This document shows positions 13,201 through 19,200 of a stretch of 64,000 bases of DNA, piece by piece; the first letter of the stretch is position 1; the number at the start of each line of letters is the position of its first letter. Location of the stretch: the IMG/VR virus record IMGVR_UViG_3300023274_000046, one strand, 5' to 3'. This DNA is from a virus. The translations under genes and the position numbers were made by a program. The notes under the pieces are model-generated. The model saw only the letters and a program-made list of their open reading frames with translations. It was not told the DNA's origin and ran no database searches.

Positions 13201-16200
13201 TAGAATGTAAATGAATAGAAAAAACTAATTTAACACTTCAACCTAAAGTATGCTTAGGATTTTTACTAATCGTCAGAGAAAAGCAAGACTCTCCGTCACA
13301 GAACCCAGTAATAAAATTAGGGTTTAAATCATTAGTGCTAGTAGTATATTTCGTTATTCATTTATATAACTTTAATAATCTTTTTAAGTGACTTAAATAA
13401 AATCTATTCTTACAAAATTAATGAAAGTGTATATAAACCCGGAAATTATTATATCTACACAAATTAAATCTCAAGAGTTATTACTTAATAGTAAGTATAT
13501 CTATTAAGACCTAAAAAATTTATGTAGATAATTTCACCCGGAACCGGTTTCCCGGCGACTAGAGTACACCTTACAGTATTAGAAATACTGAAGAACCATC
13601 TACTCGTTGCTCTTTTACAAATACTCTCAAAAATATTTGACTTAGATCCGCGATTACCCATTTCAATTTCTATCATCTCTAGTGCTGTTACCATACCCTG
13701 GTGATTAGTCAGGCCATATTAAAAGTTTCCCTTAAATCTTTGGTTACTAGAGCTTTAGGGCTTCCCCGGAGTTTGGCTCTTTTTTACACAAAATAGCGTT
13801 AAACCAACGCTCTTATGTAATCTTATACCAGGGCTTCTCATATTAAATGTTGTTGTCATGAAATTCATAGCTCCTAGTAAACTAGATATACCAGACAGAT
13901 GTAATCCAAATATAGCTAAATCTACACTTGGACCACTATGACTTTGTATACCTGATAGGGGTGGGTATCAATAATGTTGGTAATCTCATTGTAGTATGTA
14001 CAATTATCATTACGCGCAATACTTTTAAGTATTGTTCGGACTATACCTTTATCTTGTAGTGATATAGAATTTAAGTTAGTAGGTATTAGATTTTAGAGGG
14101 TTTCATAGTATAGCTTTTTAATTATGAACTATTCTATTTTTAGATAAATAATTTTTACATAAATAATTTTGTTATTACTGAAGTTAATCTGTAAAATGAT
14201 ATAAAAAATTTAAATTATATTCATAAATATCATTTTAAGATTTTTTGTTTGATAATACCAAATGATAAAACAAACCGTGATGATAGAAATAAAAAAAGAT
14301 AACACTATTAAAACAAGTTGTAAATATCATTTTATTCTTCAGTATATAAAGTTGATAAATATCTACCTTTTTTATAGTTATCAGATTTGTAAATACGTTT
14401 TCCTAATTGACCATTTACGTTTTCATACCTGTAATATACTTTTGCTGATATTCTCCCTTTTGAATCATAAATTGTTTCTACTTCAGAGTTTGCTTCTACT
14501 TGATAGTTTACAGGAGTTCAGCCACTTATTCTTTTAGAAGTCTCGCGATACCCATTTTCAAGGTCCTCTTCACTACTATCACCATCATCCTTAACAAAAA
14601 TTTTATGTTTATTAGGATTATTACCATTAGGATTATTATGATTATTTCCACCCTGGCTTTTAGTATTATTATTTCCTTGACCAAACATTTTAAGTATATA
14701 ACCAAACACTCTATTTAAATAAGATACCAGCGTAGAACTTATAATGTTTAATATCATTATTAATAGTAATCCTTGTACAAAATCCAGAAGAGCTATTAAA
14801 AATATTCTAATATTAGGGTAATTATATAATATTTCTTCATTAGATTTTAGATAATTTTTAATTAAAGTTATAATATATAATGAAAAAAAATATTGGTAAT
14901 ATCCCAAAATATCTTCTGTTAATAAACCAAAAACTAATAATAAAAATAAACCTTGGCGGGTTAACAACATTTTATCTATATTTCTATAGATAGAATAAAC
15001 CAAAACAACAATATAGTAAATTACTTTATATTTTTTTAGTTTATTCAAGAGATAGTTAAAGTAATAAAATAAAAAGTAATTAAATAAATAGTTATTTAAT
15101 TTTTTGTTAAATATATTTATATTAGTATGATAACAGTTTTTTTTTACAGAACAATCCGATCATTCTAGTTTATTAAATGCGCTATTATTAATTAAAGGGT
15201 TATTACTAGCCAAGCCGTTACGTGGCTTGGCATTTCCAACTCCTTTACAATCCAACAATTCAAAGTTATTAGTTTGCTCCATACCATTATCAGATACTAA
15301 TTTTTTATTGGTTTTTCTCATTATTTCTCTTATTGAATTTAATTTATCCAAGTTTCATTTATTTTTAACATAAGATCTAGCTCAGATTTTGTATTCAACA
15401 CTTTTCATACCTATTAAATTATCTTTGAAATATTTAATTATATTTTTTACTGCCCTAGAATTTGTAGTATCCAAAATATAATTATGTTTCTCTTTATATC
15501 TAATAAGGGTTTTAATATGTAATAGTTTTGCTATACTTTCTAGAATTATTTTATCTAACTTCTGACTTATACCAAAACCATGAACTATTCTATTAGTATA
15601 TTTACTGATTAAATAAAAACTACCTTCTCCTTCTACAAATCCACTTAATCAAGGTTTAGATATCACATTTAATATGTAATCATAATTTAATGGATGTCTT
15701 ATGTCTTTTCAAGCTGGAGATTTATAGTTTTCAGGGATAGTTTTTAGTTTCAATCCAAATAAAAGTTCATTTTTTTGTGATTTATCCAAATTAGAGTTAT
15801 TGACTACACTAAATGTCTTTTTTAGTTTCATGTAATTAAAATATTTACTAGTTAAAATAAAATACTTATCAAAAATAGGAAATATTACATTTTCTAAAAA
15901 TTTCCTATCTCTTATAGCTATTTGTGCTTTAGTACCATCTTTAGTAATGTTTCCTATACCCAAGTTAGTTTTGATATAGTATAGCGCTCTTAAATTATAT
16001 AAAGAAAGAGCTATTTTAAACCCTAAAGTTCATTTATTGTTTTGTATATAAAAACCAAAAGTACCTTCTCCATCTGTTATTCCTACTAATCATTGTTCAA
16101 ATCACTCTTTTTCATTTTTTACAAGATACTCCTTGTTAAGTCTCTGATGGGTAACAAAGTTTTTCTTTGCTACCCAGGCATATTGTCCCCGTGTCATAAG

Positions 16201-19200
16201 CATTCTAACATACGATTTATTTGGCAATCGTAAGTATCCTATTTCATTGTTTTGGAGATATTCACGCATCGAAAAGAGTTTATAACCTTCTAATTTACAA
16301 AATAAAAAAAAGTACTCCATATTAAGAGTTCACCCTGTCCCTACACCATTTTCTATTCCACCAGCAAATAGAAATAGTACAATACTAGGAATTAAAGACA
16401 AATAACTAATATTATTAAGTCTAGGAAATCTTTTATTTATAGTATAAGACAGTATGCTAGTCATTATTATGTATAATAATCAATTTTATTAATACTAATA
16501 ATTGTAATTTATAATCATTGTTATTTATACTAACGATTGCTATTATATAGAGAATTAATTAAAAATGAAGTAATTCGTACACGATCTCACCGAGGAGTAT
16601 CACTATAAACATCCAACTCTCTATATGCAGTAGGCAAACGCGATCTATATCCAAGAATATGTTGTAGTAATCTCTCCCTAGCCATTCTATCTACGATTCC
16701 ATCACCATTAAAAGTATTTGAAACAGTAAAATTATTATAACCTAATGATCTAACATTATGGTTGAATCTATATTGCATAAGAACACCTACTTCCCTATCA
16801 TTCTGGGGAGGTATATTACCTGCAGGATCATAGGTTTGAAGAACGGTAGACGGTGGTATATTATTTGTTGGATATGATCTACCATCCTCTCTTATGTGCG
16901 AATGGTATTCATATGGCTGTCATTGAGGTCCTCCTCCACCAGGATTATCTCCGTTATTACCACCTCCAGGGAAATTACCATTCCCTGAACCATCCCCAGA
17001 GCTCATCATTAAATTATATGCATCTAATAATTCACCTAGATAATATAAGATACTATTCAACTCCAAATTTTGATAGATAAGAACACTAATATAAATAAAA
17101 TTATAAAAACTAGAAATAACACAAGCAAAACTATAAATAAAATGTATATTACGTATACATAGACCTAAAAATATCCATAACTTTATTAAACAAGAAAATC
17201 ATTTTACCCCTTTATTTTGGGATAAATATGGACTATATATTCACCCTCCTTTATAGGTAAGGGGCTTCGCGTGTAGTCTCTGAAGATCCTACTTGTAATT
17301 AAAATTACTTTGGTTTCTTGCATAATTCCCCCATGTATGCAAAAGTATTACGACCAATTTAGCTTAAAAAAACTTTATAAGTTATAACTCAAATTAATTG
17401 TCTATGCATCTGTTTACTGGAAAAATAAATTCAAAAATCGAGGGCTTACATGCATATAGCGAAGTAATAATTAAAAAATTTACACTTTCTAACGGCATTT
17501 CTTCTTTTGAAAAAAAACTAAAAGTGTATCTATAAACCAAAAGTGTATATATCTAAAAAACAAAGTGTATGTATTTAATAAAGATAAAAAGTGAAGCTAA
17601 GTTATTGCTGTAATGAGATATTACTTGAAATTATTATACAAGCTTTTAATTTTTTCTCAAGGAGACCCTTTTTGTTTGCCATGTCAGGACCTCCTAAACC
17701 TAATGGTAGTAAGAAATTCAATTTGTTATAACCGTTAAGTTATATTTGGACTATATCTTCATCCTTAAAGGAGCATAGCGTATAGTCTCTGAGGATCCTA
17801 TTAAAACAACAAACAAAAATGATTTTTATTCGTTTCCTGCGGATTGTCCATTTTTTAATCATATTTTTTTTAATATAAAGATATTCTTTTTAATATTTAA
17901 GGTTGTGTACGCTTCAAAATAATTAGATTAATCTAAAAAGTTTTCACAACACTTATAAAAAGACTTTAGGAGTTTCCCGCATATAGTTATGTAATAAGAG
18001 TAATATTGCTACTACCCACGGCAATTTCTTTATATGAATACAAGAAAGGATGAGTAAAAAAATCCAAAAGAACCAAGGGTATTAAGCTAAATTATCTAAA
18101 TGTGAAAAATCAAATGATTTACGTTTACTATTAAATTGTGCTTTAATTGTTTCAACTTCTGATACATCTTTTTTAGTTAAAACTTTACCAGCCCGTAATC
18201 TAGCTTGTTCAACCACATAGGATCAATCTTTATAAGCCAAATATTTAGAAGAATACAAAGGAAAACGATCAAAATAAGATATAACCTTAACATGGCTAGC
18301 TGCACTGTGAGATATAACCATAAAGGCATAAAACACTTTATCTTTTTGTTCTCTGGTTCTAGAATACAAGTTTACACCTAAATACATGGCTATTTTATTT
18401 AATATTACAAAATAACTAGCTCCGCCTTGTTCTACTGTTACATCACGATGATAAGTTTGTCTTAACTCAATACGGAAAAAAGTTTGTATTCTTTTACTAA
18501 TAATGTTTCCTTTTTTCTTTCTATCAGTTAATGTAATAGAAAAATTACCATCGCCGTCGGTGAAACCGGCTAACCAAGCATTGCTGTCTATAGGTGATTG
18601 ATCCAAACTTAAGCAATCTATATTATAATTATAAAATTCATTAAACCAATTTATAGCACGATGTAGTGCTTCTATTTTAGGCGTACGCATGTAACCATTT
18701 ATAATATTAATAATTATTATCATATCTTCTATTTTTTGAATTTGTCAAATAACACAACCTGCATTTTTCTTAATATATACAGTCCCAGCTTTAGTAACAC
18801 TAGCTAATTTATTAGCCAAAGGTTCATCTGCTAAACTAAATACAACAAGTATTTTAGGACGGTATATTTTAGATTTAGAATCCTTATTATGTATAGCAAA
18901 GGATCCATCAGCTTCTATTAGCCCTGCTAGGTAGGATCCTATTTTTGATCTTAATTCTGATTCTGTTTTAACATTTGCGTTTTCATAACCTTTACCTTGA
19001 ACACTTTCACACATGGACACCTCCCGGTTACTCATAGATTTTAGGAAAGCTGGTTATATACAATTAAGGTAGATTTACTACGTCACCGATGTCTGGCATA
19101 TCGGCTAACCCTGGTTCCTCACCTGGTTACTTTTTTTGGTTTTTTTTTAAGGGGCTTCGGACTTTCTTTCTACCACCTGTCTCCAGGCTGCTAGAGTACA

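Follow-up and report, generated by a model that had tools for sequence, protein, structure and literature searches.

Why does the LAGLIDADG frame of one cox1 intron continue for some 332 codons beyond the endonuclease itself? The question is raised by a 64,000-nucleotide stretch of DNA from a leaf-litter metagenome (IMG/VR record IMGVR_UViG_3300023274_000046; hereafter, the window), in which a single open reading frame (ORF) of 717 codons occupies positions 14332-16485 on the minus strand when frames are read under code 4, the mould mitochondrial code. From 5' to 3', this frame (translation P0001) contains 19 codons of the 3' end of an upstream intron, a cox1 exon, a LAGLIDADG region, and then the extension. 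We found that the fusion is real and reproducible, and that the extension belongs to an undescribed family within the familiar class of chimeric mitochondrial ORFs. The explanation that we favor, and consider moderately probable, is that the extension is an orphan fungal mitochondrial cassette, made of an anchor, a tether, and a small domain, which is expressed via ORFs lying upstream of it.

The endonuclease part of the frame is intact. It belongs to LAGLIDADG_1 (PF00961), with a score of 84.9 bits against a curated cutoff of 23.1 (E 8e-24, in two stretches), and both LAGLIDADG motifs were found in the P0001 translation with their acidic residues (GITDGEG and GFVEGEG). The original prediction, made from the letters of the sequence, had proposed a read-through fusion, and the approximately 332 stop-free codons do follow directly in frame. 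From the base composition, stops are expected at about 8% of codons, which gives a probability of about 2e-12 for such a stretch, and the remaining five frames of the same stretch contain 20-49 stops each.

A sequencing error at the native stop, which had been considered as a possible source of the fusion, was excluded by a second assembly, a database protein, an RNA contig, and three orthologues. Contig L010, from a separate assembly, is 99% identical and keeps the same frame open; it was the only near-identical contig returned by a single-protein search for related loci. A database protein of 710 amino acids (aa), recorded in three sources, is identical to P0001 over residues 455-717. An unspliced metatranscriptome contig of 2305 nt spans 14332-16243, which is most of the ORF. 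Moreover, three diverged orthologous introns (L011, L012, and L002) are open across 732-785 codons, so that the LAGLIDADG fusion is kept in at least four diverged lineages with no stop over 717-785 codons. Because the frame recurs in several independent sources, a missed native stop can be excluded.

The intron itself is spliced. The joint 13968|16325 was present in RNA contigs of all four metatranscriptome studies, and the joint 16428|17677 in three of them, the fourth having 16430|17679; the exon and the intron listed in table 1 are therefore defined by RNA. Position 16324, at which the original prediction had begun the ORF, is the first base of the intron, and 14332-16324 is the intronic part of the frame. 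Intron-containing RNA reached about one-sixth of the depth of the exon contig in one study and was found as short, low-depth contigs in three others. The 363 nt that follow the ORF stop presumably form the ribozyme core; a scan of 13800-17800 with Rfam gave no group I model even at E<=1, and no Rfam intron model matched.

Table 1. Features of the fusion frame and of its second copy in the window, with pairwise dN/dS where estimated, and genomic contexts of family members
Feature	Position or locus	Strand	Basis	dN/dS
cox1 exon, about 104 nt, ends GTGWTL, joined in frame to the intron ORF	16325..16428	-	RNA joints and COX1 sequence in the translation	0.04-0.12
cox1 intron (the "386" intron of the original prediction), 2356 nt, spliced out in RNA	13969..16324	-	joint in X15, X16, X17, X18
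Intron ORF in frame with the exon, TAA stop at 14332-14334	14332..16324	-
LAGLIDADG endonuclease/maturase region, about residues 128-385 of P0001	15331..16104	-	Pfam PF00961	0.27-0.71
Inter-domain linker between endonuclease and module, 85 aa, residues 386-470	15076..15330	-	alignment with L011, L012, L002	0.42-0.96
GC hairpin in the inter-domain linker	15209..15231	.	inverted-repeat scan
Hydrophobic helical module, residues 471-602, FNYLLN to GYILKM	14680..15075	-	homology, AlphaFold2, hydropathy	0.44-0.65
Asn/Gly/Pro-rich linker with acidic Ser/Asp/Glu patch, residues 603-640	14566..14679	-	AlphaFold2 and family comparison	0.29-2.61, scattered around 1
Tail class A, predicted beta-hairpin meander, residues 641-717	14335..14565	-	models and orthologue alignment	0.27-0.76
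Intron remainder 3' of the ORF stop, 363 nt	13969..14331	-	splice coordinates
Second copy, 546-codon frame from its own ATG	59711..61351	+
GIY-YIG catalytic domain, residues 169-257 of P0002	60143..60409	+	Pfam PF01541, 35.1 bits against a cutoff of 22.6
Module of the second copy, residues 306-438	60554..60952	+	homology
Asn-rich linker and basic/acidic tail class B	60953..61348	+	homologous to the L008 tail	about 1.1 (tail B)
Context: fused behind the same cox1-intron LAGLIDADG	window, L002-L004, L011, L012
Context: same fusion, LAGLIDADG largely deleted, module and tail full length	P0008
Context: same fusion, LAGLIDADG truncated	P0005
Context: free-standing	L001, P0009, L008
Context: inside nad5 intron region	L005
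Context: fused behind rps3/VAR1	L009 1829-4120		Pfam VAR1 E 5e-9, 764-codon frame
Context: behind a hydrophobic leader, tail ending in weak NUMOD-like repeats	L007 5995-7761

The extension has four parts. The first, an inter-domain linker, shares 40-44% aa identity with the orthologous fusions of L011, L012, and L002 and is also present in P0010 and P0005. Its AT-rich sequence holds, in frame, a GC hairpin that is unique in the window, with a perfect 8-bp stem (GCCAAGCC, a 7-nt loop, GGCTTGGC). The hairpin was considered as an insertion or junction scar and rejected as such, as the linker around it is homologous in orthologues where no hairpin was found; an inverted-repeat scan of L002:7200-8500 revealed no counterpart.

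The second part, the module, is hydrophobic and Tyr-rich and spans about 130 aa; in the family alignment, its G, Y, Y, P, I, and M columns hardly vary. AlphaFold2 predicted four to five helices in the window module with a predicted local distance difference test (pLDDT) of 80-93. The original prediction had called this a membrane domain. That name rests on its hydrophobic character and predicted helices; only one merged segment of the P0001 module rises above the Kyte-Doolittle threshold; in relatives there are two hydrophobic regions (4-5 overlapping windows). Judging from hydropathy and the predicted helices, insertion into a membrane is likely. The structure searches yielded little: with Foldseek, the whole anchor-plus-tail model gave TM scores of <=0.24 by model length and <=0.42 by match length; VIA-align against 48,161 chains gave generic helical-hairpin matches only (Z about 7-8, NINJ2 on top), which is the background level for helical models; and an Atlas look-alike search with the free-standing member P0006 gave nothing usable. 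After the YILKM end, as proposed originally, an Asn/Gly/Pro-rich linker follows, which is disordered in the AlphaFold2 model (pLDDT 34-46) and has the same make-up in all family members.

The last part is a small tail, which spans 60-90 aa in the family and falls into two classes. The window tail (class A) has a pLDDT of 71-85 in the AlphaFold2 model, and the full-length tail of an orthologue, modeled alone, forms a predicted five-strand hairpin meander (pLDDT 82, predicted TM score 0.65). The closest structural match was a model of the YwqK family among the AlphaFold database (AFDB) clusters (E 2e-4, TM 0.67/0.59, root-mean-square deviation 2.4 A over 68 residues). Nine of the top 30 structural matches were YwqK-family proteins, and others were MORN, RHS/YD, or WG repeats. 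The predicted fold is like that of YwqK-family and MORN-variant proteins. Tail A differs from them in having only about five strands and no match at the sequence level: Pfam at E<=10 gave no YwqK/MORN-variant (PF07661) match for seven class A tails, only isolated and inconsistent weak ones, and a PDB profile search found nothing below E 0.69. A structure search of tail A against PDB likewise returned nothing at E<=0.001. The likeness to YwqK may reflect, as far as the models go, a common hairpin-meander arrangement. The window tail also shares the pattern GW..VN...ETIY with the distant member P0027.

How widely is this arrangement distributed? A profile built from the two window modules was searched against 1.84 billion cluster representatives and matched 26 clusters, of which one was spurious (a Cys-rich repeat); none of them was named and none had a Pfam family. 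Both window copies scored 176-182 bits on a hidden Markov model (HMM) of 15 family members. The same HMM, run with filters off on all ORFs of the window and of L001-L009, gave no other matches, with a gap from 4e-39 to 0.04. With Pfam at E<=10, the modules of the 15 members matched no respiratory or ATP-synthase subunit, and the only matches were isolated, weak, and inconsistent. No description of the module family was found in the searchable literature; unnamed ORFs of Pleosporales have been listed, none of them characterized (PMC5626475). Every locus that was fetched looks fungal-mitochondrial, with mitochondrial genes as neighbors (cox1, atp6, nad, and homing endonucleases). Related contigs carry a continuous cox1/cox2 ORF, a feature of Pleosporales (PMC5626475), and the host is taken to be an ascomycete of leaf litter.

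The genomic contexts of the family turned out to be diverse (table 1). The module recurs behind LAGLIDADG, as the original prediction would have it; it also occurs free-standing and behind rps3/VAR1 or nad2-like leaders. In the free-standing L001 member, a stop lies six codons upstream of the ATG. The L007 member begins immediately after a nad2-like (Proton_antipo_M) ORF; its tail extends through a stretch rich in Lys to weak NUMOD-like repeats (P0021, E 0.046), and a GIY-YIG catalytic domain is absent. A nad2-like leader also stands at the start of the second window copy, L008, and P0015. In P0008, Pfam found only COX1, yet the module and tail are complete. This 601-aa protein (from a Logan contig) also has a GIENG-GTG-TLNT exon-intron junction motif in three tandem repeats ahead of a mutated first LAGLIDADG motif. 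In L002 there is no Met codon between endonuclease and module, which favors translation as a fusion. The module tree, although poorly resolved, places free-standing members together with a fused one (92/86 support), suggesting that the cassette changes context as a unit. The tail classes roughly follow the module clades on this tree, compatible with one origin each. Thus, of the mobile membrane module with a variable C-terminus that had been proposed, mobility fits the contexts, whereas module, linker, and tail appear to travel as one cassette.

The second copy in the window lies in an open frame of 570 codons (59639-61351). In its product, P0002, the module is preceded by a nad2-like leader and what remains of a GIY-YIG catalytic domain; it is followed by a linker rich in Asn and a tail rich in Lys, Arg, and Glu (class B). 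The homology of the two modules, claimed from the outset, was borne out by BLASTP (P0001 module against residues 312-438 of the 570-codon frame, E 6e-35) and tblastn (53% identity over 128 aa, E 3e-30), and neither program found a further module copy in the window. The tails after YILKM had been described as unrelated, and indeed hhalign gave a probability of only 0.06 between the class A and class B alignments. Tail B aligned with the free-standing L008 tail (blastp, 40% identity over 68 aa, E 2e-4 in a small database). Its derivation from the DNA-binding region of a GIY-YIG endonuclease was unsupported, as the tails, compared by blastp with every locus ORF, matched family members only.

The module was thought to ride on two unrelated endonuclease families. 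Its placement behind both was confirmed, but the GIY-YIG is only a remnant and the contexts of the module are not endonuclease-specific. A Pfam scan of P0002 at E<=1 revealed no NUMOD, HTH, or other DNA-binding domain, with the module coming directly after GIY-YIG, and the domain is therefore not a complete endonuclease. The closest relative, L008, has no GIY-YIG; its cassette starts at an ATG of its own, immediately behind the stop codon that ends a nad2-leader ORF. Because the L008 cassette occurs without GIY-YIG, the endonuclease reads as the invader at the second copy; it more likely entered a cassette gene and then decayed than carried the cassette there. By their aa identity of about 53%, and with orthologues of each elsewhere, the two window copies are old paralogues rather than products of recent transposition onto two endonucleases. 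The nad2-like leader appears to be a reused 5' module; further fragments resembling it lie at 46074-46172 (tblastn E 0.009) and 59257-59390 (E 4e-4). The second copy is followed directly by a reverse-transcriptase-like ORF of 344 codons on the other strand (61620-62654, minus).

Based on these contexts, the reading that we favor would run as follows. The extension would be an autonomous cassette of three pieces: the helical, hydrophobic anchor, some 130 aa long; a disordered linker rich in Asn and Gly that includes an acidic patch; and a small domain at the C-terminus. In class A this domain would resemble a YwqK/MORN-variant beta-hairpin sheet, and in class B it is a segment rich in Lys, Arg, and Glu. 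Fixed expression signals seem to be lacking in the cassette itself, which would be expressed either from its own ATG directly after the stop of another ORF, or in frame on the 3' end of an upstream ORF, the candidate hosts being the cox1-intron LAGLIDADG, the nad2-like leader (with or without a GIY-YIG remnant), and rps3/VAR1. In the window, exon, LAGLIDADG, linker, anchor, and tail would be translated as one polypeptide from unspliced cox1 pre-mRNA. This polypeptide would probably be cleaved later, by analogy with other exon-fused intron proteins, leaving a membrane-anchored protein that presents its tail to a putative binding partner on a flexible tether. Weak purifying selection, of the same order as that on the endonuclease, would keep the cassette, which can survive the decay of the endonuclease. 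Weak selection combined with such survival points to a passenger or co-resident of the intron ORF and not to an accessory of the endonuclease. The cox1-intron cassette would then be a long-term stable co-resident of the LAGLIDADG ORF, outliving the endonuclease.

Selection was examined by the ratio of nonsynonymous to synonymous substitution rates (dN/dS), estimated pairwise with NG86 among the four orthologous introns (table 1). By these ratios, constraint on the module and on tail A is weak, at about the level of the endonuclease. The dN/dS check that had been suggested gave ratios below 1 for the module. Several observations weigh against the cassette reading. The NG86 estimates are rough in an AT-rich genome with synonymous divergence (dS) up to about 1 (up to 1.1 in the exon). 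Recent changes in the intron ORF were nearly all nonsynonymous (nonsynonymous to synonymous, 6:0 against L010 and 13:2 against the strain of the X15 RNA contig), which fits neutral drift and makes present-day function or constraint in the window lineage doubtful. The window tail is diverged and shortened; its identity to the orthologues is about 30%, compared with 59-62% among L011, L012, and L002, and it stops about 25 residues earlier than their tails. The other helices of the P0001 module are Tyr-rich, with borderline hydropathy. The intron RNA contigs are compatible with DNA carry-over and are silent on translation. Finally, the conserved inter-domain linker and the similar dN/dS of module and endonuclease would equally suit a role co-opted together with the endonuclease.

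This last point leads to the first rival. According to it, the cox1-intron lineage co-opted anchor and tail as a tether that keeps the LAGLIDADG maturase/endonuclease at the inner membrane, the site of mitochondrial translation and of nucleoids. In its favor, the fusion, including the specific linker, was kept across four diverged lineages with open frames; that the module and LAGLIDADG have similar dN/dS and that L002 offers no internal Met for separate translation argue in the same direction. A tether of this kind hardly explains why the cassette also exists without any endonuclease and behind rps3, or why it is intact where the LAGLIDADG has been deleted (P0008). Moreover, we know of no LAGLIDADG that requires a membrane tether, and we count this against the proposal, which we regard as unlikely.

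It is likewise improbable, in our judgment, that the extension is a decaying, functionless read-through, that is, selfish or neutral DNA lying in frame by chance. The nonsynonymous excess within the population and the shortened, diverged window tail are what such decay would produce, and tail B, at a dN/dS of about 1.1, would fit as well. Against this stand the 332 stop-free codons where stops are predicted at about 8% of codons, frames that stayed open in every orthologue despite an exon dS reaching 1.1, and module ratios consistently below 1. In addition, tail A is predicted to fold confidently and is well conserved among the three orthologues.

The third rival takes up the analogy with polymorphic effectors that the original prediction had drawn. 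It holds that the module delivers interchangeable tails to a membrane in a mitochondrial conflict, as in polymorphic toxins or plant cytoplasmic male sterility (CMS) ORFs, either between mitochondrial genomes or against the nucleus. One module family does carry at least two unrelated tail classes, and the second copy, like CMS chimeras, begins with a borrowed 5' leader, here a nad2-like one. In addition, tail A has a predicted fold similar to YwqK-type repeats, and bacterial toxin-immunity systems are known to include such repeats. On the other hand, no toxin family in Pfam matched any tail (one isolated TcdB_toxin_midC match, E 0.023 in one of seven tail members, was not significant). The likeness to YwqK concerns only a generic hairpin-repeat fold without Pfam support. 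Each tail class is compatible with a single origin, and swapping between close modules was not evident on the poorly resolved module tree. The analogy is not supported, and we consider a conflict effector quite unlikely. The same low probability applies to a wider version of the idea, a conflict family with interchangeable tethered tails that rides homing-endonuclease introns and acts in competition after hyphal fusion or in mito-nuclear antagonism; if true, such a family would play in fungi the part that CMS factors play in plants, or that of polymorphic effectors.

Least probable is that the module once formed the C-terminal end of a standard mitochondrial membrane gene and was displaced when an endonuclease gene inserted ahead of it: free-standing endonuclease genes that carry replacement gene ends are a known precedent and a hydrophobic module stands directly behind endonuclease genes in both window copies, but no respiratory or ATP-synthase Pfam family was found in the 15 members and the family HMM left a wide gap between family members and all other ORFs of the window and L001-L009.

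The upstream cox1 intron (16429-17676) contains an ORF of its own, P0003, with 252 codons at 16530-17288 on the minus strand. Its layout resembles that of the cassette, with a hydrophobic N-terminus, a Gly/Asn-rich linker, and a 130-aa tail. As a relative of the module it was ruled out, since the two are not homologous by hhalign. The small family to which P0003 belongs consists of six unnamed proteins; 16522-17061 is covered by an RNA contig. The close strain L010 does not have 16 nt (16506-16521) that lie between the P0003 stop and the exon, in the 3' end of this intron.

How does the fusion compare with known systems? Like the exon-fused LAGLIDADG ORFs of fungal group I introns (e.g., yeast cox1 and cob), the window ORF is fused to its exon, has two motifs, and lies in a spliced cox1 intron whose remainder follows the ORF. 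It differs from them by about 330 additional C-terminal codons that encode an unrelated cassette and are conserved in orthologous introns. Chimeric ORFs have been described in fungal mitogenomes, such as the rps3-homing endonuclease fusion of Ophiostoma and the rps3-cox1 ORF of Parastagonospora nodorum (PMC5626475). The cassette shares with the rps3-homing endonuclease fusions the in-frame joining of unrelated modules in mtDNA, and one of its members even stands behind rps3/VAR1. Here, however, the mobile partner is neither an endonuclease nor a host-gene copy; it is an orphan cassette for a putative membrane protein and matches no Pfam family. Plant CMS ORFs are similar in being hydrophobic orphan ORFs with borrowed 5' parts of essential mitochondrial genes. 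They are usually young, lineage-specific chimeras, whereas the cassette family is conserved across species and has a predicted folded tail. Polymorphic toxin and effector systems also combine a conserved N-terminal module, a low-complexity linker, and unrelated C-terminal classes. The cassette differs from these in its mitochondrial setting and in its tails, in which Pfam recognized no toxin domain. It also has no known immunity gene, although no search for one was made.

Unnamed ORFs and over-long endonuclease genes are common in fungal mitogenomes and are usually ignored in annotation. Our results indicate that at least some of them form a coherent family across genomes, with a helical anchor and a folded tail (both predicted), weak selection, and a change of context as a unit, and the family alignment (A2) provides annotators with a concrete search profile. 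If the cassette is a neutral passenger, the finding would mainly improve annotation. Beyond that, it raises the question of whether the mtDNA of these fungi encodes an inner-membrane protein in addition to the canonical set, and it offers a case in which to study how fusion to selfish or essential ORFs may bring orphan genes to expression.

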